Shown here: positions 10,527 to 64,000 of the stretch, in pieces
How the letters are laid out: each line of letters opens with the position of its first letter
Position numbering within the stretch: the first letter of the stretch is position 1
Assembly (NCBI GenBank): GCA_964589445.1
Contig: CAZPQX010000002.1
Span: forward strand, 352 to 64,351
Direction: 5' to 3'
Origin: an uncultured Candidatus Saccharibacteria bacterium
Lineage (GTDB): Bacteria; Patescibacteriota; Minisyncoccia; Phycocordibacterales; WO2-35-19
Length of the DNA stretch: 64,000 bases
Translations under genes and position numbers: made by a program
Notes under the pieces: generated by a model
What the model saw: the letters and a program-made list of their open reading frames with translations, nothing else
What the model was told of the DNA's origin: nothing
Database searches by the model: none

Positions 10527-10545
10527 CTGCTGGTTAGTAAAAAAT

Positions 10546-10650
10546 TAAGATCTTCGCAAAATAAATTTTCTCTCGATACGTAAATTTCTTGCTAGAAATT
10601 TTACTTGTCCTCGCGCCAGTCGCGCTGCGGAATCTCGCGAAAAATTATTT
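10546..10650 (+). repeat. conserved intergenic element, copy 1 (second copy at 45573-45685)
   Basis: About 80% identity over about 100 nt with the grpE-upstream region. Shared CTCGATACG-AAATTT-TTGCTA-AAATTT and GCGCCAGTCGCGCTSCGGAATCTCGC core. Confidence 0.6.
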
Positions 10651-10677
10651 TGCTTAAGATCTACTAAAAAATAAAAA

Positions 10678-23784: not shown

Positions 23785-26718
23785 ATGAATAATTATGATC
23801 ACAAAGAAATAGATAAGAAGTGGCCCCACTCCGCTGAAGCTTCGCGGGGCAAGCAAGAGTATAATCATCGAGAGATTGAGTCTAAATGGCAAGAAGTTTG
23901 GAATAAAAATAAACTTTATAAAACAGAGGAAGATCCAAGTAAACCCAAGTCTTTTGTTTTGGACATGTTCCCTTATCCTTCTGGAGAGGGCTTGCATGTC
24001 GGTCACCCCAAGGGCTACATCGCTACTGACATTTATTCCCGTATGAAAAAAATGCAAGGGCACAATGTCTTGCACCCAATGGGATGGGATGCTTTTGGAT
24101 TGCCTGCGGAGAACTTTGCTATAAAACATAAAATTCACCCAAGAGTTGCAGTAGAAAAAAATATTCAAAGATTTAAAGAGCAGCTTTCAAAAATTGGTTT
24201 TAACTATGATTGGGGCAGGGAAATAAATACTACAGATCCAGAATACTATAAATGGACACAGTGGATATTTTTGAAGATGCTCGAAAAAGGTTTGGCTTAT
24301 GAATCTTATGAACCGATAAACTGGTGCCCTTCTTGCCAGACTGGTCTTGCAAATGAAGATTTGGAGTCAGATGGTACTTGTGAACGCTGTGGCTCTGTCG
24401 TAGAAAAGCGCCCAATGCGACAGTGGGTTTTGAAAATAACAGAATACGCAGACAGGATGCTTGAAGATTTGAAACTTTTGGATTGGCCTGAATATATAAA
24501 GGAGGCTCAGAGGAATTGGATAGGTAGGAGTGAGGGGATGCTCTTCAGTGCTCCAGTAAAAGATACTGACTTAAAAATTCAAACATTTTCAGCGCATTTC
24601 GAAGGTTTTGCTGCAGATACTTTTGTTGTAATCGCACCAGATCATCCGTTTTTGCCACAGTTGGTAAAAGGGACTGAAAAAGAAAAAGAAGTTTTGGAAT
24701 TTGCTCAAAAGCTCGTGGAAAAAAGATTGGCTCAAGGGTTTGCTGCCGAAAAAGAGTCAGAAGGGATTTTCACTGGTCGTTATATTGTTGATCCGGTGGG
24801 TAATGGAGATTTGCCAATTTGGGTGGCGAGTTATGCGCTCGCTGATTATGGTACGGGTATAGTGAAATGTTCTGCTCATGATGAGCGAGATTTCGCCTTT
24901 GCGAAAAAATACAATGTTCCCTTGAAAGAAGTTTTGATCCCAAGGATGATTGACTATACCAACCCTCATGTTGAAGGTAAAAAGGTAGTTTTTCGAAAAG
25001 CTGTTATTGTACTTCTCAAAAATCCAAAAACTGGTGAAATATTGACTTTGAAATGGAAGAAGCAGCCCTGGGTCACTTTTGTCATGGGAGGAATTGAAGA
25101 AGGGGAAACTCCAGAACAGGCGGCAGAAAGGGAAATAAAAGAAGAAACTGGTTATCAAAATATAAAAAATATAAAAATTTTGGGTGGTCCGACCCAGGCA
25201 GAATTTTTTGCAGCTCACAAGGATGAAAATCGCATCACCAACTCGTGGCTTGCGGTCGCTGAGCTTGCTGATGAAACTCAAGAAAGTTTGTCCGATGAAG
25301 AAGCTGCGATACATGAACTTGAATGGGTTGATCCAGAAAAAATAGATCCTAAAAAAATCCAGCATAGCGAGGCTGCACTTATCTTGGATAGGATGAAAAA
25401 TGGAGTGAAGGCTTGGACTGATATGAAAAACAGTGTACTTTTGGCACCAGAGCAGTTTAAAGGAAAGATTGCGGGAGAAGTACGACAAGAAATAATCGAA
25501 TATTTAGAAAAAAATAAATTAGCTGAAAAAAAGACCACATATAAAATAAAAGATTGGGTGTTTAGTAGGCAGAGATATTGGGGAGAGCCAATACCTGTGA
25601 TCCATTGCGAAGAGTGTGGGGTCGTAGGCGTGCCCGAAAAAGATTTGCCGGTGAGACTTCCTGATGTTGAAAATTATCAGCCGACAGGTACTGGTGAGTC
25701 TCCGCTTGCCAACATTGAGAATTGGGTAAATACAACTTGTCCTAAGTGTGGTGGTGCTGCAAGGCGCGAGACAAACACGATGCCTCAGTGGGCAGGGTCT
25801 TCTTGGTATTATTTGCGCTTCATGGATCCAAAAAATAGTGAGAAACTTGTCGACCCCAAAAAAGAAAAATACTGGGCGCCTGTTGATGTGTATGTCGGGG
25901 GGGACCATGCGGTGAGACATCTTATATATGCTAGGTTTTGGCATAAGTTTTTGTTTGACATTGGCTCTGTGAGTACCGAAGAGCCTTTTGCTAGATTGGA
26001 ATTCTTGGGATTTATTTTGGCAAAAGACGGAAGGAAGATGAGTAAGAGATGGGGGAATGTGATAAATCCTGACGATATAGTTGATTTGTGGGGAGCAGAT
26101 ACCTTGAGGCTCTATGAGATGTTTATGGGCCCATTTGAAAACACGATTGCTTGGAAAGATGAAAGTCTTATAGGTGTCAGGAGATTTTTAGAAAGGTCTT
26201 GGAAATTTGCGCATGGCAATTTTGTAGATCAAGATTCTCAAGAAAAAAATCAAAAAATAGAGTCATTACTACACAAAACAATCAAAAAAGTAACTGAAGA
26301 CATAGAAGGTTTCAAATTCAATACCGCCATTTCTACGATGATGATCTTGCTCAATGAATTTGAGGCGAATAAAGATTTGGTTTCTAAAGAATATGTCGAG
26401 GTATTTTTGAAACTTTTGGCCCCTTTTGCTCCTCATATGGCCGAAGAGATATGGTCTGGTTTTGGAAACCAAAAATCAATACATTTGGAAGAATGGCCAA
26501 AGTTTGACGAGTTAAAAACCAAGGAGACAGAGGTAAAAATTATGGTGCAGGTAAACGGCAGAGTGAGGGCAAATTTCGTTGCAAATGCTGGTATTTCTGA
26601 AGAAGAAGCCAAAAAACAGGCCCTCGCCATGCCAGAAGTTCAGAAGTGGATTCAAGGTCTTAGCATAGAGAAGACAATCTTTGTTGTGGATAAGCTTCTG
26701 AATATCGTTGTAAAATAG
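23785..26718 (+). CDS. leuS: leucyl-tRNA synthetase with an embedded Nudix hydrolase domain
   Basis: HVGHPKGY (HIGH), KMSKRWGN (KMSKS) and a LeuRS-specific anticodon-binding C-terminus. A GGIEEGETPEQAAEREIKEETG Nudix box lies within an insertion of about 150 aa (about nt 24940-25420). Confidence 0.9.
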   Translation: MNNYDHKEIDKKWPHSAEASRGKQEYNHREIESKWQEVWNKNKLYKTEEDPSKPKSFVLDMFPYPSGEGLHVGHPKGYIATDIYSRMKKMQGHNVLHPMGWDAFGLPAENFAIKHKIHPRVAVEKNIQRFKEQLSKIGFNYDWGREINTTDPEYYKWTQWIFLKMLEKGLAYESYEPINWCPSCQTGLANEDLESDGTCERCGSVVEKRPMRQWVLKITEYADRMLEDLKLLDWPEYIKEAQRNWIGRSEGMLFSAPVKDTDLKIQTFSAHFEGFAADTFVVIAPDHPFLPQLVKGTEKEKEVLEFAQKLVEKRLAQGFAAEKESEGIFTGRYIVDPVGNGDLPIWVASYALADYGTGIVKCSAHDERDFAFAKKYNVPLKEVLIPRMIDYTNPHVEGKKVVFRKAVIVLLKNPKTGEILTLKWKKQPWVTFVMGGIEEGETPEQAAEREIKEETGYQNIKNIKILGGPTQAEFFAAHKDENRITNSWLAVAELADETQESLSDEEAAIHELEWVDPEKIDPKKIQHSEAALILDRMKNGVKAWTDMKNSVLLAPEQFKGKIAGEVRQEIIEYLEKNKLAEKKTTYKIKDWVFSRQRYWGEPIPVIHCEECGVVGVPEKDLPVRLPDVENYQPTGTGESPLANIENWVNTTCPKCGGAARRETNTMPQWAGSSWYYLRFMDPKNSEKLVDPKKEKYWAPVDVYVGGDHAVRHLIYARFWHKFLFDIGSVSTEEPFARLEFLGFILAKDGRKMSKRWGNVINPDDIVDLWGADTLRLYEMFMGPFENTIAWKDESLIGVRRFLERSWKFAHGNFVDQDSQEKNQKIESLLHKTIKKVTEDIEGFKFNTAISTMMILLNEFEANKDLVSKEYVEVFLKLLAPFAPHMAEEIWSGFGNQKSIHLEEWPKFDELKTKETEVKIMVQVNGRVRANFVANAGISEEEAKKQALAMPEVQKWIQGLSIEKTIFVVDKLLNIVVK

Positions 26719-27905: not shown

Positions 27906-27920
27906 GTACTCAAGTTATCA

Positions 27921-27990
27921 AAACCCAAAAAGTGCAAAAACAAAAAGCGAGATTTATCTGCCGTTTTTTGTTTTTGCACTTTTTGGGTTT
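27921..27990. repeat. 26-bp perfect inverted repeat with 18-nt spacer
   Basis: aaacccaaaaagtgcaaaaacaaaaa ... tttttgtttttgcactttttgggttt. Confidence 0.7.
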
Positions 27991-28061
27991 TACTGTTTAT
28001 ATAGAAACTTTTACAACTTTTTCTCTTGGCACTTTAGTCTCTGGACTATATAATTGTAAAT

Positions 28062-30422: not shown

Positions 30423-30541
30423 CCCAAAAAACCAAAAACACTACTCCTTCTGCGTTAGGTCATAAGCCTGCCCGCCATGCTTCGCAAGGCGATGCGGGCG
30501 GGGTTTTAGGCTCTTGAAGAAGTGTGTTTTTGGTTTTTTGG
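30423..30541. repeat. 19-bp perfect inverted repeat (cccaaaaaaccaaaaacac) flanking an 81-nt spacer with an inner GC hairpin
   Basis: Arms 30423-30441 and 30523-30541. Inner cctgcccgcc...gcgggcgggg hairpin. Confidence 0.6.
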
Positions 30542-30552
30542 GAAATAAAATA

Positions 30553-30591
30553 TAAAAAGTTGCGCTCCGCTCGTTCTTCACGAGCGGAGCG
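30553..30591 (-). terminator. intrinsic terminator for the minus-strand 130-aa gene
   Basis: gcgctccgctcg-ttcttca-cgagcggagcg 11-bp stem with a T-run on the minus strand. Confidence 0.7.
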
Positions 30592-30600
30592 GTTTCAGTG

Positions 30601-30993
30601 TTAGGCCGGGATCTGGGCTGGGGCGAATAATTGCTCGAATATCTCATCTGACGGGCATGGTGACATGCCGTTCAGGGAGAGGAATGGGGTGCTCCCTGCA
30701 AATACAGGTCGCAGCCAGTAAAACACGATGCTCCTGGGGAGCACACTTGCTCCATCTTCTAAAGTCGTCACCAGCCTTACTTGCCACATTTCAGCCGGGG
30801 GTTTTGGTGACACCCGACTAGTTCCGGTAGCCTCTATTCGGGCCACTATATTCTTTTTTGAGATGTGGTTGCCATAGTAACTTTGCACAGACATTAGCAG
30901 ATTTGTACCTGCTCCGTGCAACGCATCATTTGCGATATACCAGGTTCCCAAGGGTTCCCCAGGGAAAGTGATCCCTGATTCGATTCTGAACAT
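30601..30993 (-). CDS. GC-rich hypothetical protein (130 aa)
   Basis: AGGAGG SD 6 nt upstream of ATG. About 52% GC. Lone minus-strand gene. Confidence 0.5.
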   Translation of the reverse strand: MFRIESGITFPGEPLGTWYIANDALHGAGTNLLMSVQSYYGNHISKKNIVARIEATGTSRVSPKPPAEMWQVRLVTTLEDGASVLPRSIVFYWLRPVFAGSTPFLSLNGMSPCPSDEIFEQLFAPAQIPA

Positions 30994-31030: not shown

Positions 31031-32284
31031 ATGAAAAGTCAAGGAAAAAAAGTCATAGATCCTGAGCGAAGTCGAAGGGTTTTTGTAGGCCTTTCGGGCG
31101 GGGTGGACTCGGCTGTTTCTGCTGCACTCCTCAAGAGCCAGGGTTTTGATGTGACTGGAGTTTTTATCAAGGCTTGGTCACCTCCTGGCTTCGTCTGTAC
31201 ATGGAAAGAAGACAGAAGGAGCGCCATGAGAGCGGCGGCTGTTTTGGATATCCCATTTCTCACTCTTGATTTGGAAAAGGAATACAAAAAGGATGTTGTG
31301 GACTATATGATACGAGAATATAGAGAAGGCAAGACTCCCAACCCTGACGTAATGTGCAATAAGGAAATAAAGTTTGGGCACTTTTTGAAATTTGCTCTCG
31401 AAAATGGCGCTGACTACGTGGCGACGGGGCATTACGCTCGAGTCCATGCAAGTCAGGAGTTGCGAGGAGAAGGTTCTCTCAAAAAGTCCTCGGGTTCCTT
31501 CCCTTCGGTCGGCCAGACTTTTATCGAGAACTTTTCTGTCCTGTTGCTTGAGGGAAAAGATAAGAACAAAGACCAATCATATTTTCTCTGGACACTAACA
31601 CAAGATCAGCTAAAGCACACACTTTTCCCGATTGGGCACTTGGAAAAGTCAGAAGTAAGGAAGCTTGCTCACAAATTTGGTTTGCCTCAAGAAACACGCA
31701 AAGACAGTCAAGGACTCTGCTTCCTCGGCAAGATAGACATGAAAGAATTCTTGAAGGAATATCTCGATGTTAAAAAAGGGGATGTATTGAATGAAAACGG
31801 TGAGGTGATAGGTGAGCATGATGGTGCAGAGCTTTTCACTTTAGGAGAAAGGCACGGGTTTAGTATTTTTAAACAAACAGGTGAGCCAATGTATGTGGTG
31901 AGCAAGGATGTTGAAAAAAATACTATTACGATTGCAGTGAAATATAATTTTGATGAGAAAAATGAGACGGCAGAGCAGGAAAGCTCCTCCTCAAAAAGTC
32001 CTCGGTCCCTCGCCCAGGGCTCAGCCAGACTTTTTTCAGAGGACTTTCCTGCTCTGCCTAGGCGAATTTATTCACAAAACTGGATTTCGGGCGAGGAACC
32101 GAAGGAAGAAATCGAGTGCAGGCTTCGTTATAGGCAGACAAAAATAAAGTGCAGGGTAGAGGGGGATAATTTATTTTTGACAGATGGGGAAATAGTGGCT
32201 CCTGGTCAATCAGTTGTTTTTTATGGGCCTGCCTCTTCGGCGGAAATAAGTGAAATTTGCCTTGGTGGTGCTATAATAGCCTAG
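31031..32284 (+). CDS. mnmA: tRNA-specific 2-thiouridylase MnmA (with two in-frame palindromic insertions)
   Basis: VGLSGGVDSAVSA PP-loop, KDQSYFL, C-terminal PGQSVVFY...CLGGAII. Two insert regions relative to canonical MnmA. Confidence 0.85.
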   Translation: MKSQGKKVIDPERSRRVFVGLSGGVDSAVSAALLKSQGFDVTGVFIKAWSPPGFVCTWKEDRRSAMRAAAVLDIPFLTLDLEKEYKKDVVDYMIREYREGKTPNPDVMCNKEIKFGHFLKFALENGADYVATGHYARVHASQELRGEGSLKKSSGSFPSVGQTFIENFSVLLLEGKDKNKDQSYFLWTLTQDQLKHTLFPIGHLEKSEVRKLAHKFGLPQETRKDSQGLCFLGKIDMKEFLKEYLDVKKGDVLNENGEVIGEHDGAELFTLGERHGFSIFKQTGEPMYVVSKDVEKNTITIAVKYNFDEKNETAEQESSSSKSPRSLAQGSARLFSEDFPALPRRIYSQNWISGEEPKEEIECRLRYRQTKIKCRVEGDNLFLTDGEIVAPGQSVVFYGPASSAEISEICLGGAIIA

Positions 32285-33866: not shown

Positions 33867-33883
33867 AAAACCAGAAAAGAAAA

Positions 33884-33960
33884 AACCTGAAGTAAAATTT
33901 TGATCTCCGTGGGAACCCTTTAGGGAGGAGGAGTCAGAATTTTACTTCAGGTTTTTTTTG
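33884..33960 (+). terminator. long-armed hairpin terminator
   Basis: 16-bp arms aacctgaagtaaaatt / aattttacttcaggtt, about 37-nt spacer, T8. Confidence 0.6.
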
Positions 33961-45552: not shown

Positions 45553-45572
45553 AGACTACCGAGGATTAGGGA

Positions 45573-45685
45573 GCAAAATAGCTTCCTTTGCTCGATACGG
45601 AAATTTTTTGCTAAAAATTTGCCTCTGTCTAGCGCCAGTCGCGCTCCGGAATCTCGCTCAGGAACTATTTTGCTCCCTAATCTGA
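45573..45685 (+). repeat. conserved intergenic element, copy 2 (upstream of grpE-dnaK-dnaJ)
   Basis: Homologous to 10546-10650. Core GCGCCAGTCGCGCTCCGGAATCTCGC at 45632-45657. Confidence 0.6.
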
Positions 45686-54954: not shown

Positions 54955-57900
54955 GTGCAAGGATCTCTGAATTTTGAAGGCAAAAAATATATATCAGCAA
55001 AAGATGCTGCTAAGCAATTTGGCTATACAAGTGACTACATTGGTCAGCTTTGTCGTGGTGGTAAAATAAAATCAAAGCTTGTGGGTAGGGTGTGGTATGT
55101 ACTCGAATCAGAAATATCTTCTTACAAAAAAGTTCATCTCGCTCCAGGTAGACCATCTAAAAAAAATCTTTCAAACAAAAAAACACTACACTCATCTTCA
55201 TTTAAGAAAACAAAAAAAATTGCAGATTCAAAAGAAGATGTTTTGTTAGAAAATAAAAAAGAAATTTATTTAAATTTAGAAACACCTAAAGAATCACCAA
55301 AATACAACGTATTTCCTGAAATATCTCGGGTTGCCGAGATTGATTCAAAAAAAGTCTTATATATAGAAGACAATTCAGAGCTATTCCCAACACTCAAAAG
55401 AAACATAGACCTCGAATACATAAAAAGACATGCTTTTGATAACCTAGAAAAGGCAAAAAGCGGCAAATATAAAGCGACCAAATTTGATAAAACAGTCGCT
55501 TCTTCGCTTGTGGCAGTAGTCGTACTTTCTTTGGGCACTTTTGGTCTTTTTGAAGGGTCAAATTTCATAAACAGACTAAAGACAGAGTCTCGAGGTTCTG
55601 CTTTTGAAGAAGTTTCGCTGCTCTATTCTCCTCTCGTTAGAGATATAAACAGATCTGTGGCTCAAATTTCAGAAAAAACAGGAGTTTCTAGTTCACAGTT
55701 GGCTCTCTCTGTCGCATCAGATAGCAATACAAAATTAGTTTTTGATTTTGTAAGGAATATTGGAGAAAAAGTATTTGGCAGGTTCTTTGGCAAAGAGACT
55801 GTTTTGGTGGATTCTGGCGAATCAAACACGGTAAAAACAATAGTTATAAAAGAGACTTCTTATCCTTCTGCTGCTCCCGCACAAAATACAGTATCTACCC
55901 AAGCAAAGACAGTCTTCTTACCTTCTTTTGATAAGGAATACATAAACTCACTCATCGAAGAAAAATTTGTGGCTCTCAAAAACAATTTCCTCACTAGCAC
56001 CATTGCTCCAAATGTAAACAGGTACTATGTGTCAAGACAAAATGATGAAATAGTCGGCAATATAGGAAGTGTGGTTGCCAATCTCGAAGACAGGATAGAC
56101 GATGCAATCTCAAATATATCACTCACTGACCTCAATCTTTCTACTCTTTCAGTATCAGGTACCTCTATATTCTCTGGAAATGTGTCTCTAAATGGCTCGA
56201 CCACAGCAAGCACACTCTCTGCCACGGATTGGCTTTCTGTAGGTACTACCACAAATCATGCCACTCTCACAGTGGATGGTGCTTTTTACTTGGCGCAAGT
56301 TACCCCTCCGGGAGACACATCAAACAGGCTTTACAATGACGGAGGTGATTTGTATTGGAATGGCTCTATACTCGCTGGCTCCGGAGTGGGCAATTGGTCT
56401 ACAGATGGCACTAGTGTATGGAGAGCTTCAGGAAAAGTGGGTATAGGTACATCTACTCCTTCAACAGCTTTAGTTGTTCAAGGAAATGGTCTGACTTATG
56501 TAAATACAAATACAAATGCAGGAAGTTCTACAATATCTTTTGGAGGAGGCAACAATAATCGCCCTGTCTTTAATATGGGCCCCTTGGGTACTCCAGATGA
56601 ATTTAAAATATGGAACCTTGGATATTACCAGATGGGCGCTACAAATTCACAAGGATTAGCTCTTATGACCAACAATACCAATCGCTTGTATATAACAAGT
56701 GCTGGAAATGTAGGTATTGGAACAACAAGTCCAGGTAGTTTACTACAAATAGAAGGGAACCCATCTGGAGCAATACTTACTCTAAGGAGGGCTTCAACTG
56801 CAGGGGATTTGCCAATTTACTTTACAAAATCAAATGGTGGGCTCCAGGGAGCCATAGTTTCTTATAATGCAGGAGATATTTCTCTACATACAACTGATGG
56901 GGCAGAAAAAGTCAGATTGTTAAATAATGGAAATTTGGGTATTGGCACCACATCACCATTTGCAAAACTTTCTGTCGAGTCGACTGCGGGGGCTGCACAG
57001 TTTGCTATTGGCTCATCAACCGCCACTTCTTTTATTGTCGACAAAAATGGAAATGTTGGGATTGGTATAGTGACCCCTACACAAGCATTGGATGTAGTGG
57101 GAAGCGTACAAGCTTCAGGTAGTTTCTATTCTGGAAATGGTATAGGCATATCTCCAACTCAAACTACCATGTATAGTGGCTACAATTTTGGTTGGAATGC
57201 AAACGCTACTCGCGCAGGAAGCCCTGATGTAAATCTTTCAAGGGGTGGTGTATCAAAATTGTATTTAGGCAACGGCACATTAGGTGACTTTACTGGTACT
57301 TTGATTGCGGGAAACATAGGAGTCGCTACTACTTCTCCCTCTGCAAAACTTTCTATAAAGGCGGATGGTACTGGTACTGGCAGAGCATTTACTATTTCTG
57401 ACTCTGCTGATGCCGAGAAACTCACTGTACTTGATAATGGAAGTTTGCTCTTAGGTACTGGCTCACAGCTAGCAAGCTCGGGCAAGATAAGATTGACGCT
57501 TGGTGATGGTATCAGGTGGAGGAGAAATGATTTGGTAAATGATATGGGCATTACATACGATGCATCAGGTTCTTTTTGGTACGGTACAGCATCTTCTTCA
57601 TCTGCTCCTTTCCTTATAAATTCAAGCGGAAATATAGGGGTGGGTATATCTAGTCCTACAAGCCTTTTGACCTTGTATGGTGCGAGCCAGACCATCACAC
57701 TTCAAAATCCAACTACAGGTAGTACTGTAAGTGATGGCTACTACTTGGGGCTAGGTGCCGGCACCACAGATATGTATTTGTGGAATAGAGAGAGTGGTGC
57801 TGTCTATTTTGGTCAAAACAATGGTACTGTTATGACTTTAAATAATGGGAATGTCGGTATTGGTACTACGACTCCAGTGACCAAACTTACAGTTTATGGT

Positions 57901-60900
57901 ACTTCAGCTGATGCTTCTGCTTTGCTTGATAACGGCATATTTACAGTAAGAGGAAGCAACGGAGCTTATCTCCAAATTGGATCACAGACTGGCGAGCCTT
58001 ACGGTCTATATTTGCAGGGTAAAGATAGGACAAACAATGGTACTACATACCCTATCTTATTAAATCCAGTTGGAGGAAATGTGGGTGTTGGTACCACTAC
58101 TCCTTGGGGTAAGCTTTCGATCACAAATACGGGTAGCGGCCCAAGTTTTATCGTCGAAGACAGCACATCTCCTGATGCTTCTCCTTTTGTAATAGATGCG
58201 AGTGGGAATGTGGGGGTGGGGACGGTTGTTGCAGATAACAAGCTTCATATTGTTGATACACTGGCTAGCAATTTGCGCTACGGACTTAAATTAAGCAATT
58301 CGGCAGACGGAGTAGGTGCTGCAACTGGAATTTTATTTGAAGTTCAAGGTGGTGCAGCTGGAAGAGGAAAAGGTGGTCTTATATATCAAAATGATACTTC
58401 TTTAGGTTGGAATAGAGGAGATTTTATGTTTCTACAGAATTCAACAGCTGACGCCACAAACCCTACTGCTTCTAATGCAGTACTTACTATAAAAAATAAT
58501 GGTAATGTCGGTATTGGTTCGACCTCACCATTTGCAAAACTTTCTGTTGAATCGACTGCGGGAGCATCACAGTTTGTGGTCGGGTCATCGACTGCAACGC
58601 AATTCATTGTCGACAAGAATGGGAATGTGGGAGTGGGGACTGCGAATCCAACTTCCTTGTTACAAATATACGGTCAGGGCGTTGACATTTTGCAAGTTGG
58701 TAATGGTGTAGATACAAATACAAGTTTGAATGTACAAAATAGAGCTTTGTTTGGTTATAACCAAACAAGAGCGGCTGCTACTATACAAGGCATATCAGGT
58801 AGGGGTATAGATTTTAATGTTAATAACAATACATTTGGTTCGGGTCAGGCTATGGTAATCACAAGTGCTGGTAACGTCGGAGTCGGTACCACATCTCCTT
58901 TGGGCTTGCTCTCAGTAAACGCAAATGGCCTTGCGAGCGGCGCACCTCAGTTTGTCGTCGGCTCAAGCACGGCGACAAACCTTATAGTGGCTAATGATGG
59001 AAATGTGGGCGTAGGTATGACAAGTCCTTCATACAAGCTGGATGTGAATGGAGACATAAGATACGGTGCAAACGGTACTTTGAGGATAAATGGTGCCGGA
59101 AACTTTAAATTAGATAGCGATGAACTTTTCTTTGGTGGAGGCTCTCTTGGGACGATAAAAACAAACTGGGGTGGTGGAGGCCTAAGTTTGATAGCTGGAG
59201 GCAACAATCAGACAAGTGGCGATATCTCTTTGATAACAAATACAGCTTCTGGTGATGTGACAAGACTTATAATAAAAAGTGATGGAAATGTCGGCATCGG
59301 CACCACATCACCATACGCAAAGCTCTCTGTAGTAGGAGATGCAGCAATCACTGGCAATGTGAGAGTGGCTGGGCTCACTGCTACAGGCACAGTCACTTTC
59401 TCCGGTATCACTGGCTCTGACCAGTGTCTCCAAGTAGACGCAAACGGAGTAGTCGCTGGTACAGGAAGTGCTTGCGGCTCTAGTAGTGGTGGGTCAGCTG
59501 GCGGCACATGGGCGACTACCACATCACAAGTTGCGGGTAGGTTTGTAAACTATTCACTCAACTCTACTGACCTGGTAGCGATAGGCAGCAACTCGACCAC
59601 CACAGCAGAATTTTGGTTCGACCCAAACACTTCGACTTCATATCTTTCTGGAAATGTGGGTATCGGGGTTACATCTCCAGGAAATAAATTACATATAACA
59701 GGTGGAGGTATTTCTATAGGTAACAATGCGGCTCTAACAGACAGAGGTTTGATAAGTGTACATGATTCTTCAGATGCAAGAATAAATATTACTAAGGCAG
59801 GTGTGGATGGTTATAGATTGGAAACAAATGGAACTGCTGGTTCTTCTTATTTCACTATTGGAAGGGATAATGGAAGCTCTGATACTGGTAGTACTAATGC
59901 ATTTTTGAATATAACTCAGGCAGGCAATGTGGGCGTTGGCTCTACCACTCCAATGGATAAATTAACTGTTGTGGGAGGGGACATAAGTCTTTCAAGAAAT
60001 CAATACATTAGATTTAGATCTGAATCCTCTTCTATACAATCAGCAGCTATAGGTGGCACTTCTAGCAACGATCTTGCTTTTTACACAAATGGCCTAGCTG
60101 AAGGTATGAGACTTACTTCTTCTGGATATTTGGGTATTGCCTCTACTTCTCCTTGGGGGCTCCTATCCGTTAACCCAAATGGACTTTCAAGCGGCGCACC
60201 ACAATTCGTCGTCGGCTCAAGCACAGCTACCAACTTCATTATTGCGAATAATGGAAATGTGGGTGTGGGTATCACAAACCCAACTGCAAAATTAGATGTG
60301 AACGGTTCAATCTATTTGAGAACCGGGAGTTTTTTCTCAGATACTTATAGTGGTTATTCTGGAGGTGCTGTTACTCACAATATTCCATCAAGTTCATATT
60401 TGAGGTTTGTTATGGGTTCTCCAACTTCCTCTTTCCAAATACAAGATTCTTCTGCTGTGCCTCTATTAAAAATGGAAGCAAACGGAAGATTGGGGCTTGG
60501 AAGCAGCACCCCTTGGGCACAACTTTCAGTCCACCGAAATACTTCTGACACATCATACTCTCCACTCTTCGCTATCGCTTCTTCGACTGCTAGCGGCACG
60601 ACGACAAACTTCATTGTGGCAAATAATGGGAATGTCGGCATCGGGACTACTAATCTAACTGATAACTTAACCCTTAAACCATCATCAGCAGGTAAGGGAA
60701 TGGTGGTAAGGGAATCAGACGATGGTAATGAAGCAATTAGACTACTTGGTTTTTCTGGTGGTGGAAATCTAAGCCTCCAAACTGGAGGAGTAAATACAAT
60801 TAGCTTTGATGCCACAAGTGCCTCAGGGATATCATATTTTAATGCTGGGAATGTCGGCATCGGCACTACTACACCAAATAGGAAACTAACTGTATTTTCT

Positions 60901-63900
60901 GATTCTACAGTAGGGCAATCTCAATTAAGACTTGGTTTTAGTGATCAATTCTCTTGGGATATAGGAAGAGACAACGGTTCTTCTGATGGTAGATTGATGT
61001 TTACAAGTAATCACAATGGTACAACAGCAGAAAGAATGTCAATTTTATCAAACACCGGCAATGTAGGTATTGGTACTACATCCCCTTGGGGCTTGCTATC
61101 CGTAAATGCAAACGGACTTTCAAGCGGTGTGCCTCAATTTGTAGTCGGCTCATCTACAGCGACAAACTTCATTGTGGCGAATGGTGGGAATGTAGGTATA
61201 GGTACAGCAGAACCTACAGAAAAATTATCAGTAAATGGCAATATTCAAATTCCTTCAGGTAGTGCTATTCGTCTTTCGTCACTAGCAGGAAGCCCCCAAA
61301 TATTCTCATCTGGTTCCACAAATATTAGTATCAGCCCTGCCTCAAATGGAACTGTGGTACTTGGCTCTGTTGCGGGTATAAAAGCAGGAGTTGGTACTAC
61401 AACGCCATTTGGTGCACTTGCAGTTAACAGTATTGCTGGTGTGCCTGGATTTACTGTTGGCTCATCAACAGGAACATACTTTATTGTCGACAAGAATGGA
61501 AATGTGGGTGTGGGGACGACGAGTCCATTCAGTCATTTTGAGGTTCAAGGTTCCGGGATATATGACGCATACAATACTATTACCGCATCAGGAGGGAATC
61601 AGGCGGCATTATATATCAGACGTGTACAATCGGGAGGTTCGTATAACAACGGCTGGACTTGGTATATTCCTGCTTCATCTAAAGATTTGCGGCTTTATGG
61701 CGACGCGGGCGGGGATTTGTTAACGGTGCAATCAACTACCGGTAACGTGGGTATTGGTACTACAAGTCCTTCGTCGGCTTTGCATGTTTCTAACTCAAGT
61801 GCCAATCCTCTGCTAACATTTGAGAGGCCTGGTGTTTCGACTGTTAATTTTGGGAATTCTGGTTCTGTTTGGACATGGTCTTCAAGTGCGGCATCTGCAA
61901 ACCACTTTGCATTTGCGCCAGCTGGAGTAGAGGCGATGAGGATACAAAATGGTGGCAACGTCGGTATCGGTACTACAGCTCCAGGAGACAAGCTTGAAGT
62001 TTCTGGAAATGTTTTTGCTTCAGCCTTCAACTCTACAAGTACTGTCTCTAGGTATAATTCAATTGGTGGAGTATTTATGGCAGGAAATGGTGGAAGTTCT
62101 TATGCTGAAATACGAGCCTACTCAGATGTTGCTGGTACTGGAAAGATTTTGTCTCTAAATTCAAATGGTGGCAATGTCGGTATTGGTACTACAAGTCCAA
62201 CCAATACACTAGCTATTTCAGGTATTGGTCTTGATATAAATCGTGATGGTGCAGAGCCTAATGTTGTATTTAGATCAACTGGGGCACAAGTTTCTCAGAT
62301 TAGAGGACTAGTCGGTGGTGGTTTGAGATTTACAAACGGTAATTCAAGTTCTGAATGGGCAAAAATTGATTCTAGTGGAAATTTTGGTGTTGGTTCTTCT
62401 ACTCCTTGGGGACTCCTCTCTGTAAATGCAAATGGGCTATCTAGTGGCGCACCACAATTCGTAGTCGGTTCATCTACAGCAACCAACTTTATCGTGGCGA
62501 ATGGTGGAAACGTTGGTGTAGGATTGCTCAGCCCAAGTTCAAGACTTGATGTCCAAGGTGTGGCTGGTGCAACTAATATATTTAGAGTTGCCTCTTCTAC
62601 TGGCTCTGATCTCCTCACTGTAGATAAGGCGGGAAACGTTTGGATAGGTACGACAGTTGTAGAACAAAGGACTCTTACTCTCCAAGCTACTGACCCTGTA
62701 TTTTATTTGAAATCATATGGAGGTTCTTCTGCACAAATTAAATATGACGGGGGATCTACTTTCACTTTGACTGACGGAACAACAAACATTTTGCAATTTA
62801 ATAATTCTGGAAGCGGTAATGATATTGATATTGTCGCTAGAAACAGTTCTGATTCTGATATTGGTTTTAATACAGGAAATGGGCAAAGAAGAATGACTGT
62901 AAAATATGATGGAAATGTCGGCATCGGTACTACTACACCACAAACCAAGCTTGTTATTTACGATACTGATTATGCGACAAACAACAGAGCCAACTTAGAG
63001 ATAATGACTTCTTCTAGTCAGGCGGCTGGCGTAGGAGGTTCGATTGCTTTTGGTGGCAGAAATGATCAGGGTACTTCTCCTTCAAATAGTCCATATATTT
63101 TTGGAAAAATAGAAGGTATAAGTGAGGGCTCAACTGGCTGGGCTGGTGCACTTGCATTTTCTACTACAGAAGGAAGTTCGGGTATTACAGAAAAATTGAG
63201 AATAACTAGTGCAGGTTATACAGGTGTGGGTTCTTCTACACCTTGGGGACTCCTCTCCGTCAATGCAAATGGACTATCTAGCGGAGCTCCTCAGTTTGTC
63301 GTGGGCTCATCTACAGCAACCAACTTTATCGTGGCGAATAATGGAAATGTGGGAGTAGGGACTGCTAGCCCATCTCATAAGTTAACTTTGGCCAGTGGAA
63401 ATTTTGCAGTCGAAACCGGAAACATGTATTTAGCTTCTGGTAATAGTATTCATTTTGATTATGGTTCAAGTAATAGTTATTACATCCAAAAGAATGGAAC
63501 TAACTTATATCTTGGTACTGGCGGAAGTTTTGCAATGATGAATGGTAATGTAGGTGTCGGCACCACAACACCAGGTGACTTACTTACACTCTCATCTCTA
63601 AACCCAAGAATTGATTTGTGGGCAAATACTTCTACTTCAACTAGAGTGGCTTTGACTTCTTATGGAAACCTAGGATTTGCAACTTTGCAAACTAGAGGTG
63701 CTTTTGGTTTGAGACTCGGTACAAATAGTGGTGAACATTTGAATATAGATACTTCAGGTAATGTAGGTATTGGGACGTCATCACCAACTTACTTGTTAAA
63801 TGTTGTAGGTGCTACTGGTGGAGTTTCTGGAATCACTACACAAAATACCAGTGCCTCATCGTATGGTATGCTTAATGTCTTTAACAAAGGAGCAAAGGGT

Positions 63901-64000
63901 TTAAATGTTTACGCTCTCGGTTCTACATACGGCAACACCTTCTTTGGTGGGGTTACTGGGAATAACCAATTGGTACTTGAGGCAAATTCAGGAACTAGTA
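54955..64000 (+). CDS. giant cell-surface protein (>3,015 aa, 3' partial): N-terminal excisionase-like HTH, single TM, then about 30 tail-fibre-like G-N-V-G-I-G-T-T-S-P repeats
   Basis: Uninterrupted frame from GTG 54955 (in-frame TAG at 54952) to the window end, verified codon by codon for the first 700 nt and spot-checked downstream. Not in the ORF track because no stop falls within the window. All listed minus-strand ORFs from 55266 to 62948 are its antisense shadows. Confidence 0.8.
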   Translation, partial: MQGSLNFEGKKYISAKDAAKQFGYTSDYIGQLCRGGKIKSKLVGRVWYVLESEISSYKKVHLAPGRPSKKNLSNKKTLHSSSFKKTKKIADSKEDVLLENKKEIYLNLETPKESPKYNVFPEISRVAEIDSKKVLYIEDNSELFPTLKRNIDLEYIKRHAFDNLEKAKSGKYKATKFDKTVASSLVAVVVLSLGTFGLFEGSNFINRLKTESRGSAFEEVSLLYSPLVRDINRSVAQISEKTGVSSSQLALSVASDSNTKLVFDFVRNIGEKVFGRFFGKETVLVDSGESNTVKTIVIKETSYPSAAPAQNTVSTQAKTVFLPSFDKEYINSLIEEKFVALKNNFLTSTIAPNVNRYYVSRQNDEIVGNIGSVVANLEDRIDDAISNISLTDLNLSTLSVSGTSIFSGNVSLNGSTTASTLSATDWLSVGTTTNHATLTVDGAFYLAQVTPPGDTSNRLYNDGGDLYWNGSILAGSGVGNWSTDGTSVWRASGKVGIGTSTPSTALVVQGNGLTYVNTNTNAGSSTISFGGGNNNRPVFNMGPLGTPDEFKIWNLGYYQMGATNSQGLALMTNNTNRLYITSAGNVGIGTTSPGSLLQIEGNPSGAILTLRRASTAGDLPIYFTKSNGGLQGAIVSYNAGDISLHTTDGAEKVRLLNNGNLGIGTTSPFAKLSVESTAGAAQFAIGSSTATSFIVDKNGNVGIGIVTPTQALDVVGSVQASGSFYSGNGIGISPTQTTMYSGYNFGWNANATRAGSPDVNLSRGGVSKLYLGNGTLGDFTGTLIAGNIGVATTSPSAKLSIKADGTGTGRAFTISDSADAEKLTVLDNGSLLLGTGSQLASSGKIRLTLGDGIRWRRNDLVNDMGITYDASGSFWYGTASSSSAPFLINSSGNIGVGISSPTSLLTLYGASQTITLQNPTTGSTVSDGYYLGLGAGTTDMYLWNRESGAVYFGQNNGTVMTLNNGNVGIGTTTPVTKLTVYGTSADASALLDNGIFTVRGSNGAYLQIGSQTGEPYGLYLQGKDRTNNGTTYPILLNPVGGNVGVGTTTPWGKLSITNTGSGPSFIVEDSTSPDASPFVIDASGNVGVGTVVADNKLHIVDTLASNLRYGLKLSNSADGVGAATGILFEVQGGAAGRGKGGLIYQNDTSLGWNRGDFMFLQNSTADATNPTASNAVLTIKNNGNVGIGSTSPFAKLSVESTAGASQFVVGSSTATQFIVDKNGNVGVGTANPTSLLQIYGQGVDILQVGNGVDTNTSLNVQNRALFGYNQTRAAATIQGISGRGIDFNVNNNTFGSGQAMVITSAGNVGVGTTSPLGLLSVNANGLASGAPQFVVGSSTATNLIVANDGNVGVGMTSPSYKLDVNGDIRYGANGTLRINGAGNFKLDSDELFFGGGSLGTIKTNWGGGGLSLIAGGNNQTSGDISLITNTASGDVTRLIIKSDGNVGIGTTSPYAKLSVVGDAAITGNVRVAGLTATGTVTFSGITGSDQCLQVDANGVVAGTGSACGSSSGGSAGGTWATTTSQVAGRFVNYSLNSTDLVAIGSNSTTTAEFWFDPNTSTSYLSGNVGIGVTSPGNKLHITGGGISIGNNAALTDRGLISVHDSSDARINITKAGVDGYRLETNGTAGSSYFTIGRDNGSSDTGSTNAFLNITQAGNVGVGSTTPMDKLTVVGGDISLSRNQYIRFRSESSSIQSAAIGGTSSNDLAFYTNGLAEGMRLTSSGYLGIASTSPWGLLSVNPNGLSSGAPQFVVGSSTATNFIIANNGNVGVGITNPTAKLDVNGSIYLRTGSFFSDTYSGYSGGAVTHNIPSSSYLRFVMGSPTSSFQIQDSSAVPLLKMEANGRLGLGSSTPWAQLSVHRNTSDTSYSPLFAIASSTASGTTTNFIVANNGNVGIGTTNLTDNLTLKPSSAGKGMVVRESDDGNEAIRLLGFSGGGNLSLQTGGVNTISFDATSASGISYFNAGNVGIGTTTPNRKLTVFSDSTVGQSQLRLGFSDQFSWDIGRDNGSSDGRLMFTSNHNGTTAERMSILSNTGNVGIGTTSPWGLLSVNANGLSSGVPQFVVGSSTATNFIVANGGNVGIGTAEPTEKLSVNGNIQIPSGSAIRLSSLAGSPQIFSSGSTNISISPASNGTVVLGSVAGIKAGVGTTTPFGALAVNSIAGVPGFTVGSSTGTYFIVDKNGNVGVGTTSPFSHFEVQGSGIYDAYNTITASGGNQAALYIRRVQSGGSYNNGWTWYIPASSKDLRLYGDAGGDLLTVQSTTGNVGIGTTSPSSALHVSNSSANPLLTFERPGVSTVNFGNSGSVWTWSSSAASANHFAFAPAGVEAMRIQNGGNVGIGTTAPGDKLEVSGNVFASAFNSTSTVSRYNSIGGVFMAGNGGSSYAEIRAYSDVAGTGKILSLNSNGGNVGIGTTSPTNTLAISGIGLDINRDGAEPNVVFRSTGAQVSQIRGLVGGGLRFTNGNSSSEWAKIDSSGNFGVGSSTPWGLLSVNANGLSSGAPQFVVGSSTATNFIVANGGNVGVGLLSPSSRLDVQGVAGATNIFRVASSTGSDLLTVDKAGNVWIGTTVVEQRTLTLQATDPVFYLKSYGGSSAQIKYDGGSTFTLTDGTTNILQFNNSGSGNDIDIVARNSSDSDIGFNTGNGQRRMTVKYDGNVGIGTTTPQTKLVIYDTDYATNNRANLEIMTSSSQAAGVGGSIAFGGRNDQGTSPSNSPYIFGKIEGISEGSTGWAGALAFSTTEGSSGITEKLRITSAGYTGVGSSTPWGLLSVNANGLSSGAPQFVVGSSTATNFIVANNGNVGVGTASPSHKLTLASGNFAVETGNMYLASGNSIHFDYGSSNSYYIQKNGTNLYLGTGGSFAMMNGNVGVGTTTPGDLLTLSSLNPRIDLWANTSTSTRVALTSYGNLGFATLQTRGAFGLRLGTNSGEHLNIDTSGNVGIGTSSPTYLLNVVGATGGVSGITTQNTSASSYGMLNVFNKGAKGLNVYALGSTYGNTFFGGVTGNNQLVLEANSGTS

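Follow-up and report, generated by a model that had tools for sequence, protein, structure and literature searches.

A probable family of hairpin-forming palindromic repeats lying in frame within mnmA and other housekeeping genes of Patescibacteria

Rickettsia palindromic elements (RPEs) are repeats of 105-146 nt whose consensus spans the entire element. The repeat described here, which occurs twice within the gene mnmA and is referred to below as the mnmA-type repeat, shares with RPEs (Ogata et al. 2000, listed in PMC3184786) the form of a short palindrome able to fold into a hairpin, residence both in intergenic DNA and, in frame, in many unrelated housekeeping genes, the addition of a probably tolerated peptide, the want of a gene of its own and of classical transposon ends, and a setting in the reduced genomes of host-dependent bacteria. 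It differs from RPEs in belonging to another phylum, in occurring only a few times per genome, in occupying the same linkers across a whole class, and in having a centre that is inverted between relatives; moreover, it conserves only ~23 nt and an A/T run, whereas its outer stem is site-specific and its apical stem-loop variable in length. We liken the two by behaviour and not by sequence, so that the likeness would be one of analogy rather than homology, and membership of the RPE family is unlikely.

Quasipalindrome template-switch mutagenesis, a process established in E. coli, makes the imperfect arms of a palindrome complementary and can extend them, in likeness to what is described below. 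It explains compensatory changes without selection on structure, as well as the presence of host codons in the arms; being a mutational process rather than an element, however, it leaves the conserved core and its spread unexplained. Among dispersed repeats, SPRITE, BOX and RUP of Streptococcus pneumoniae (PMC3184786) have some copies fused in frame to genes, and their intergenic positional bias is the same as that of the mnmA-type repeat, but they have a full-length consensus, RUP carries MITE ends and is linked to an insertion sequence, and insertion within genes is exceptional among them, as against ~60% of copies here. The REP and REPIN sequences mobilized by RAYT transposases (PMC3733652) are also dispersed palindromes, with two inverted motifs around a variable spacer and a hairpin fold. 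REPs, however, are tagged GTAG or CGTC, extragenic and of high copy number, none of which holds for the mnmA-type repeat, and neither tag is present in its core or at its junctions. Unlike MITEs, the repeat has neither terminal inverted repeats shared between copies nor a target-site duplication. In intragenic (recoding) invertons (PMC10028968), as here, a segment bounded by inverted repeats lies within a gene, and its inversion recodes the protein without a frameshift; invertons are nevertheless defined by orientations that coexist in a single population, with an invertase as the presumed driver, whereas the states of the mnmA-type repeat are seen only between genomes and the repeats that flank it are members of a dispersed family.

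The window, by which we mean the whole 64-kb stretch of DNA that was analysed, contains the following features at the locus of interest.

31031-32284, forward strand: mnmA coding sequence (417 aa), host of both copies, from the list of open reading frames (ORFs); Pfam PF03054, PF20259 and PF20258, and matches to MnmA structures in the PDB at E ~1e-79.
31454-31554, forward strand: copy 1, the entire imperfect palindrome, a decayed hairpin covering about residues 142-175; from the fold topology, the alignment to structure 2hma and the match to related locus L002.
31469-31480, forward strand: left outer arm of copy 1, GAAGGTTCTCTC, whose partner in both the constrained fold and the MFE structure is 31523-31535.
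31481-31522, forward strand: core of copy 1, an exact motif match, with AAAAAGTCCTCGG at 31481-31493, then a variable apical part containing C(TTCG)G, and CCAGACTTTT at 31513-31522.
31523-31535, forward strand: right outer arm of copy 1, ATCGAGAACTTTT, which encodes IENF, aligning with host MnmA residues; from the constrained fold and the structure alignment.
31969-32058, forward strand: copy 2, a near-perfect 90-nt hairpin covering about residues 314-343; from the MFE fold and the alignment to 2hma.
31969-31992, forward strand: left outer arm of copy 2, GGCAGAGCAGGAAAGCTCCTCCTC, site-specific, pairing with 32035-32058.
31993-32034, forward strand: core of copy 2, an exact motif match, with AAAAAGTCCTCGG at 31993-32005, a variable apical part, and CCAGACTTTT at 32025-32034.
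32035-32058, forward strand: right outer arm of copy 2, TTCAGAGGACTTTCCTGCTCTGCC, pairing with 31969-31992.

The initial annotation of this DNA had described two related segments within mnmA, an essential tRNA-modification gene, as insertions that preserve the reading frame, and this description is borne out. The segments form a gapless 48-nt pair (31478-31525 vs 31990-32037; family D17) of 75% identity and have an exact 16-mer, CTCAAAAAGTCCTCGG, and an exact 11-mer, GCCAGACTTTT, in common. Against solved MnmA structures they are insertions of ~24 aa for copy 1 (residues 142-166 relative to 2hma, the alignment resuming at N167 within the right arm) and ~30 aa for copy 2 (residues 314-354), and the 417-aa frame in the ORF list is uninterrupted through both. 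The location of the segments stands, with the limits better set at ~31454-31554 and ~31969-32058, and the terminal inverted repeat first proposed (aaagtcctc/gaggacttt) is free of mismatches in copy 2, has a single one in copy 1, and is only one register of a longer palindrome. Predicted MnmA peptides across the inserts include SLKKSSGSFPSVGQTFIENF and SSKSPRSLAQGSARLFSEDF, and the two copies are read in different frames, copy 1 giving KKSSGS and copy 2 KSPRSL. In the predicted structure, a moderate model with a mean pLDDT of 64.6, residues 141-169 and 307-340 have pLDDT <50 and no secondary structure; the inserts are absent from the solved structures.

Within the 64-kb window alone the evidence for a repeat is weak, because 9 of 100 shuffles of the window also give at least two matches to a 14-mer with up to two mismatches. 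Pattern, BLAST and covariance-model searches of the window returned only the two mnmA copies, which score 64.4 bits (copy 1) and 60.8 bits (copy 2) with model R1, both being training members of that model; the next-best hits, at ~20 bits, are generic AT-rich intergenic hairpins. A GC-rich motif in the N-terminal part of mnmA, CCTGAGCGAAGTCGAAGGG, was considered as a further repeat and set aside, as it is single in the window and found elsewhere only in mnmA of loci L001, L003 and L004. RecG, PolA and UvrB, sought in the window as empty-site references, are absent from it, and it contains no tRNA or tmRNA gene.

The decisive support for a repeat family comes from matches outside the window. The search motif AAAAAGTCCTCGG-N8-38-CCAGACTTTT occurs at 76 loci in 185,579 species genomes, all with Patescibacteria titles and with no more than five per genome, where our own estimate of the chance expectation is ~0.5, and at 81 further loci in metagenome contigs, giving 157 loci in total, both in frame within genes and intergenic. 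The same motif gave no hits in viral contigs, and a phage or plasmid vector was rejected on that ground. Conservation is limited to a core in two parts, AAAAAGTC-CTCGG...CC-A-GACTTTT, which encloses a GC-rich apical stem-loop that varies; 23 positions are invariant and an A/T run is kept, while arms and apical part vary among copies. The core is flanked by A5 and T4-6, and because this A-run/T-run is semi-conserved at a fixed distance from the core, part of the arm, it suggests, travels with the element. Copy number is low, with two copies in the window and ~8 further ones, outside the set of motif matches, across loci totalling 1.15 Mb, and the same few genes are struck repeatedly; low copy number and recurrent hosts also fit old insertions held intact by some constraint. 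The 23-nt core is intact in MnmA orthologues that are only 55-60% identical, where a purely neutral relic should have decayed; this calls for re-insertion or conversion that recurs, or else for selection acting on the core. We found no description of such repeats in Patescibacteria in the literature.

We favour, with a probability of about 0.6, the reading that both segments belong to a low-copy, gene-less, hairpin-forming repeat family of Patescibacteria (Paceibacteria/Parcubacteria) that is RPE-like. The resemblance to RPEs proposed at the outset holds for behaviour, in that Patescibacteria carry the same core both in frame in many unrelated housekeeping genes and between genes, and does not extend to architecture, in which a short core sits inside site-specific arms and the centre is inverted in place. 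Nor is the double strike on one gene a coincidence, true as it is of this genome, since both MnmA linkers are recurrently occupied across the clade.

Folding bears out a stable hairpin for one copy only. Copy 2 folds at -52.7 kcal/mol (z = -5.7), with none of 200 shuffles as stable, and copy 1, with the same topology, is no more stable than shuffled sequence (z = +0.7). Each copy sits in an outer stem of 10-25 bp of site-specific sequence, and terminal repeats conserved among copies are lacking: the two outer arms of a copy are complementary to each other and bear no relation to those of other copies. Scored as inverted repeats, the two flanks of one copy reach 25.4, and flanks taken from different copies 11.9; an independent metagenome set gives 26.7 and 11.6. 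All 11 pairs of the outer helix covary: double-change cells number 252, as against 84 +/- 8 in shuffles, and sliding the partners makes the signal collapse. Target-site duplication, by comparison, left no trace in the flanks: the best 7-mer direct match is 4.59 in a copy's own flanks and 4.35 across copies, and a full 7/7 match is found in none of 58 copies. A TTCGC/TCCGC-like motif noticed by eye beside some right arms was considered as a target duplication and proved not to be a copy-specific direct repeat.

The origin of the arms apparently differs between sites. In Tgt the 24-aa insertion consists of the left arm and the core, and the right arm aligns with conserved host residues; at MnmA site 1 the structure alignment likewise resumes inside the right arm, so that one arm is host sequence. 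This picture fails in some cases, because in RsmI and at MnmA site 2 the net insertion is the whole hairpin and both arms have apparently been added.

The copies that lie outside ORFs are intergenic, ~22-25 of them 18-63 nt after stop codons, with 5-6 between convergent genes and practically none between divergent ones, and none interrupts a gene out of frame. Such positions raise the alternative that the core is a selected functional cis-element, for instance a DNA or RNA hairpin bound by a host factor, a terminator, an attenuator or a stabilizer of mRNA 3'-ends, and that it occupies linkers for regulatory and not for selfish reasons. An A-run, a GC-rich hairpin and a T-run in succession do resemble a bidirectional terminator, C(UUCG)G and GNRA-like apical loops are frequent, the copies are few and their hosts recurrent, and genes whose products share only 55-65% identity still have the 23-nt motif unaltered. 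That apparent conservation is partly a product of searching with the motif, however, and the element is found in both orientations relative to the host mRNA. Selection at the level of RNA was rejected, as mismatches read in the sense of the host mRNA show no excess of G.U (24) over A.C (33), which points to symmetry at the DNA level; extra conservation of the apical stem-loop or arms at orthologous sites was rejected as well, both diverging as fast as the flanks. A simple terminator scan called neither window copy, both of which lie inside the gene, and Rfam 15, at E-value and gathering level, has no match in the window, with only sub-threshold chance hairpin hits at the two copies. Among the 120 closest MnmA homologues the element is present at site 1 in 11, at site 2 in 16 and at both in 3; because only 24 of the 120 (20%) hold the intact motif, MnmA does not require it. 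Taken with these observations, a cis-regulatory role is possible but unlikely.

Opposite orientations at one site are common in the family (150 of 381 same-site pairs). Loci L011 and L014 have their arms in the same position, with the 28-nt centre of one exactly the reverse complement of the other's, and at site 1 the window differs from L002 by an 85-nt inversion, 31454-31535 matching the reverse complement of L002 with 38 consecutive identical bases. The repeat orthologous to copy 2 is decayed in L002 and inverted in L003; a search of metagenomes for an empty site-2 allele, with the two flanks 10-40 nt apart, gave no hits. With inverted repeats around a short intragenic segment, and with either orientation found at one and the same site among related genomes, these loci could be programmed intragenic invertons, in which a site-specific recombinase reversibly flips the centre within a population and yields two isoforms per gene; other bacteria are known to have intragenic recoding invertons (PMC10028968). 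A flip would keep length and frame, and the observed classes are stop-free both ways. The two states, however, are seen only between assemblies, no recombinase was identified, and the break points between the window and L002 lie in the outer arms at no fixed site, which is better fitted by recombination across the palindrome. The flipped peptides are, in addition, low-complexity loops predicted to be disordered, in which a functional switch is hard to see, and we consider a programmed switch quite improbable.

Roughly 60% of the copies occur at inter-domain linkers of housekeeping genes, where they keep the frame and contain no stop codon: 47 of the 76 genome loci are in ORFs of at least 200 aa, and 29 of 49 independent metagenome copies are in long ORFs. 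By Pfam the hosts include RecG, PolA, MnmA, Mur ligase, UvrB, RNase R, an IleRS-type class I synthetase, Dus, Fmt and Tgt, with insertion points between or beside Pfam domains. All six combinations of frame and orientation are used by the 47 ORF copies (forward 11/10/3, reversed 5/10/8), a pattern replicated in the metagenome set. The MnmA orthologues show this at the same two sites, with KKSSG, KSPR and KVLG in forward copies and KVW, KSL and KSG in reversed ones; peptides of the intact motif are found in MnmA homologues only at the two linker sites and in several frames, and a reversed-sequence control gave none. The element thus acts at the nucleotide level and not at the protein level, and the unit is neither unique to its two sites in the window nor kept by orthologues as conserved protein sequence. 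Hairpin inserts that are GC-rich and bypassed by the ribosome are known in a yeast mitochondrion, and stable hairpins within coding sequence might likewise be removed or bypassed at the level of RNA or translation, intron-like or by translational bypassing, and contribute no residues. This is very improbable: the in-ORF copies of both sets are open and in register, neither of which a bypassed insert needs, the remainder are intergenic and never interrupt a gene out of frame, and intron and ribozyme families gave no match. Ordinary lineage-specific protein insertions, conserved as amino acids with incidental nucleotide similarity and hairpin, have in their favour only that the sites are variable linkers at which MnmA orthologues often differ in length, and are hardly credible now that the frame data refute them, the nucleotides of one site being read in three frames and both orientations, the window copies themselves differing in frame, and the core occurring in unrelated genes and between genes.

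For the RPE-like family that we prefer, the data would be accommodated as follows. An intragenic element would be translated as a disordered surface loop of 25-30 aa; the survivors would be only those copies that are in frame, free of stops and placed in tolerant linkers, and the six peptide classes would correspond to three frames in two orientations. The inverted repeats would let the centre, and sometimes the entire inner palindrome, flip in place with length and frame unchanged. Within-strand template switching at replication (quasipalindrome 'correction') would copy one flank onto the other, and would thereby extend the palindrome into host sequence and keep the arms complementary. Intergenic copies would probably be hairpins at the 3' ends of transcripts, possibly terminators. 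The core could arrive at a new site through a transposase acting in trans, or by gene conversion or template switching between copies. Mobility itself we infer, because neither a mobilizing enzyme, nor an empty/filled pair at the nucleotide level, nor a target rule was found. A bolder version, which we regard as doubtful, is that the core is the recognition site of a dedicated factor (a recombinase or hairpin-binding protein), or else that the hairpin propagates itself and grows by template switching with no transposase involved. In both cases the copies would amount to 'flip cassettes', mobile and reversible, which in ultra-small Patescibacteria recode linkers within essential genes; they would form a dispersed family of intragenic invertons rewriting neighbouring host codons into their stem.

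What is new here is the conservation of a core only, with site-specific complementary stems, no target-site duplications, inverted centres and, in some cases, host coding sequence as an arm. On the favoured reading, 'selfish DNA inside protein-coding genes', hitherto a hallmark of Rickettsia, would be extended to the candidate phyla radiation, whose genomes are tiny and thought to be repeat-poor, and a short hairpin repeat would be able to reside, flip and grow in essential genes, among them mnmA, polA, recG, uvrB and tgt, and leave them unbroken. For annotation, the family would account for odd low-complexity insertions rich in Ser, Gly, Pro and Lys, and for length variation, in many proteins of Patescibacteria. 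For evolution, it would offer a natural system in which hairpin-driven inversion and extension of a palindrome create new peptide sequence, with host codons overwritten by the neighbouring repeat, and if it is true that flipping reverses within populations, it would represent a mobile form of intragenic phase variation.

The mnmA gene of the window carries two segments that the initial annotation had described as related to each other and as insertions relative to canonical MnmA, and both parts of that description are borne out. The features concerned are as follows.

31031-32284, + strand: mnmA ORF, 417 aa (Pfam PF03054, PF20259 and PF20258; solved MnmA structures matched with E ~1e-79)
31454-31554: copy 1 of the repeat, in the first MnmA linker (site 1)
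31969-32058: copy 2 of the repeat, in the second MnmA linker (site 2)

Alignment to the solved structures reveals one insertion at residues 142-166 (~24 extra aa) and a second at residues 314-354 (~30 extra aa). The DNA beneath them is related, as 31478-31525 and 31990-32037 form a gapless 48-nt pair of 75% identity, and the two copies share a 16-mer, CTCAAAAAGTCCTCGG, and an 11-mer, GCCAGACTTTT, without mismatch. The reading frames differ, copy 1 being read as LKKSSGS and copy 2 as SKSPRSL, and in an AlphaFold model of moderate quality (mean pLDDT 64.6) residues 141-169 and 307-340 have pLDDT <50 and are devoid of secondary structure. Folding of the unit gave a divided result: copy 2 is a near-perfect 90-nt hairpin (-52.7 kcal/mol, z = -5.7 against shuffles), whereas copy 1 has the same topology but a stability not above that of shuffled sequence. 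Judged within the 64-kb window alone, the similarity of the two copies is weakly significant, and a covariance model search found no third copy there.

Elsewhere in the gene, a GC-rich motif at the N-terminus, CCTGAGCGAAGTCGAAGGG (31061-31079, peptide PERSRR), is single-copy in the window and occurs also in L003 and L004, loci from other genomes, and in several orthologues (PERSRR, PEQGRR, PKRSRR); the resembling GTCCTGAGCGGAGCGAAGGAC adjoins the inverted element at mnmA site 1 of a further locus, L002 (L002:3084-4349). Another small GC-rich stretch of differing length, the third in the gene, is found near the C-terminus (32226-32250, …YGPASSAEISEICLGG), where GGCCTGCCTCTTCGGCGGAAATAA is present in the window and L003, absent from L002 and variable among other orthologues.

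The two mnmA segments are members of a repeat family of Patescibacteria. The count of the unit in other genomes, proposed in the initial annotation, came from a scan of 185,579 species, one genome per species, with the pattern AAAAAGTCCTCGG-N8-38-CCAGACTTTT. It matched 76 genome loci, where we estimate ~0.5 by chance, with up to five copies per genome, and all 76 record titles bear Patescibacteria/CPR names (Adler-, Vogel-, Zambryski-, Ryan- and Nomurabacteria, Paceibacterota, Minisyncoccia, 'Saccharibacteria' MAGs and one Peribacteria). Metagenome contigs contributed 81 further loci and viral contigs none. A covariance model of the repeat, R1, trained on the genome copies, scores independent metagenome copies at 46-84 bits and adds ~8 non-exact copies across 1.15 Mb of loci, so that copy number in the family is low. 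In one Mur ligase gene (L044:3501-3694) two copies of the element stand back to back in opposite orientations (peptide ...SSPKVLGSLRSTRLFSK...KKVWPNSSSTNSETRGLFEESF...).

Apart from semi-conserved positions (a few junction bases and an A-run/T-run ~10 nt further out), only a two-part core is conserved across the aligned copies. The core forms an AAAAGTC/GACTTTT helix and a GG/CC pair, together with a small internal loop. At the apex is a GC-rich stem-loop of variable sequence and length (8-38 nt), often with a C(TTCG)G or GNRA-like loop. The flanks outside the core, or arms, are complementary within each copy and different between copies: the inverted-repeat score is 25.4 for own flanks and 11.9 for flanks paired across genome copies (26.7 and 11.6 in the independent metagenome set), and 61 of the 76 copies lie above the 95th percentile for the cross-copy control. 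Changes on both sides are seen at 11 of 11 pairs of the outer helix, with 252 cells of this kind, compared with 84 +/- 8 in shuffles, and the pairing collapses once partners are slid by 1-3 columns. Orthologous inserts of L006 and L065 carry compensatory changes in both arms, and at L028, L048 and L078 cores that are nearly identical within one genome nevertheless have different outer arms. No direct repeats flank the copies when their own flanks are tested, and Rfam has no matching family. In host mRNA sense the stem mismatches comprise 24 G.U and 33 A.C, and since there is no G.U excess, the pairing looks like a property of a DNA palindrome rather than of one transcript.

The best non-family matches of R1, at ~20 bits, are 27920-27991 and 33880-33957 of the window. 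Together with 30423-30542 these are long, nearly perfect AT-rich inverted repeats, intergenic and flanked by A-runs/T-runs (arms of 30 nt at 97%; 24 nt at 96%; 19 nt perfect with an 82-nt spacer), and they look like bidirectional 3'-end hairpins. The strongest terminator-like call of the region is a GC-rich hairpin of 12 bp, CGCTCCGCTCGTGAAGAACGAGCGGAGCG, with a T-rich tail after it, at 30563-30591 on the minus strand, between yceG and a small minus-strand ORF (30601-30993). Two intergenic structured elements of ~120 nt (10545-10668 and 45563-45685; fold z = -5.3 and -7.8, no Rfam match) share a 67-nt centre, 84% identical, CTCGATACG.AAATTT.TTGCTA.AAATTT...GCGCCAGTCGCGCT.CGGAATCTCGC, within long outer stems that differ at each site. 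They are a second family of the window with a conserved centre and site-specific stems, and may represent either a small RNA gene or a further hairpin repeat. The window also encodes a class I aminoacyl-tRNA synthetase with a LeuRS-type Pfam set (23785-26718), in which precomputed Pfam hits place a NUDIX domain between the two catalytic-domain halves, as in L003, and a very large ORF (54955-63999) that runs past the window end, has many diverged repeats with a GNVGIGTT.P motif (families D1-D8), and is probably a giant surface protein.

The initial annotation likened the segments to Rickettsia palindromic elements (RPE). The behaviour is indeed alike, but the short core with site-specific arms and the in-place inversions set the present repeat apart. 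Against the defining tests of MITEs, it lacks conserved terminal repeats and target-site duplications; against those of REP/REPIN, it lacks the GTAG/CGTC tag, is mostly intragenic and is low-copy. Full-text searches turned up no account of elements of this kind from Patescibacteria or Parcubacteria.

Comparison of the arms with host proteins suggests how the palindrome may grow. Compared with solved structures, Tgt of L015 has 24 inserted aa, equal to left arm plus core, and the right arm encodes KQAPAPALFG, aligned to the enzyme's conserved EQAENAALFG, so that one arm is host sequence and the other its inverted copy. At MnmA site 1 the alignment to 2hma picks up again within the right arm, and PrmC/HemK has gained only ~15 aa net, with EELVAV, its upstream arm, lying in the helix after PRPETE; in RsmI and at MnmA site 2, in contrast, the entire hairpin is gained. 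We infer template switching as the simplest common explanation: with the core in place first, within-strand switching at the hairpin would copy one flank onto the other, extending the palindrome and maintaining arm complementarity.

Whether other copies are in-frame or intergenic has a mixed answer. Within stop-free ORFs (at least 200 aa, with at least 40 aa either side of the copy) lie 47 of the 76 genome copies, and likewise 29 of 49 in the independent metagenome set. The hosts are recurrent housekeeping genes: RecG (12 times), PolA (7), Mur ligase, Dus and PrmC (3 each), MnmA (5, plus the window, L002 and L003), and further RNase R, UvrB, an IleRS-type synthetase, ArgRS, Fmt, Def, Tgt, RsmI and RseP. 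Copies are positioned between or beside Pfam domains, after the wedge in RecG, between 5'-exonuclease and polymerase in PolA, between CSD2 and RNB in RNase R, and ahead of the anticodon-binding domain in the synthetase. The other ~22-25 genome copies are intergenic, 18-63 nt downstream of a stop codon, with 5-6 between convergent genes and essentially none between divergent ones, and are reminiscent of SPRITE, terminator-like repeats (PMC3184786). A rival account that we retain, although as the less likely one, is that the repeat works as a functional hairpin, either a binding site or a 3'-end/terminator element. The apical part and arms diverge at the flank rate and the core alone stands out, a conservation partly produced within the locus set by the motif search criterion; intact cores survive in MnmA orthologues merely 55-60% identical. 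To persist in this way, the core must be re-inserted repeatedly, converted by other copies or held by selection.

Copies with shared flanking homology in different genomes form 231 same-site pairs in the same orientation and 150 flipped. Between two Adlerbacteria (L011 and L014, flanks 79% identical) the outer arms keep their positions while the 28 nt between AAAAAGTC and GACTTTTT are an exact reverse complement. L002, a relative of the window with flanks 89-92% identical, has mnmA site 1 inverted over ~85 nt, inner arms included, and 38 consecutive bases match exactly once one sequence is inverted; site 2 of L003 likewise has the orientation opposite to that in the window. A recombinase-driven intragenic inverton, for which PMC10028968 provides the comparison system, would flip sequence in this way; we retain it as an improbable rival. 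Neither a mobilising gene nor a target rule was found in the loci examined. No empty/filled pair was found at the nucleotide level either, including in a metagenome scan for an empty site 2 with flanks 10-40 nt apart (0 found).

Inversion preserves length and frame, so three frames and two orientations explain six peptide classes, and the 47 intragenic copies use all six combinations (11/10/3 forward, 5/10/8 reversed). Alignment of 34 MnmA orthologues, a check suggested at the outset, shows the two linkers occupied in different frames and orientations rather than by a conserved protein segment, with core peptides KKSSG, KSPR and KVLG forward and KVW, KSL and KSG reversed; a single Tgt site has four readings in four genomes. 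These frame data essentially exclude both amino-acid-level conservation of the inserts and their removal at the RNA level. In some orthologues (L003:7304-8587; proteins P0007, P0016, P0064 and P0109) site 1 holds an alternative palindrome, AGCAGCCAGCAGCCAGCATC...GATGCTTGATGCT..TGCTTGCTGCT (SSKQ...LMLDA.YLLLEG), whose 3' arm is the host LLLEG codons and whose 5' arm is their inverted copy, which suggests that one MnmA linker collects several hairpin families. A sample drawn independently of the motif, the 120 closest MnmA homologues, includes 24 with an intact motif-derived peptide pair (site 1 in 11, site 2 in 16, both in 3, elsewhere in 0; reversed sequences of the homologues gave none), and both sites are occupied in L079. 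The idea that the same essential gene was hit twice thus stands, both copies being real, and is widened: the clade shows such double filling of mnmA repeatedly, with 3 of 120 homologues carrying the element at both sites. Most orthologues have no intact copy, so MnmA does not need the element, which acts on the nucleotide level and not on the protein level.
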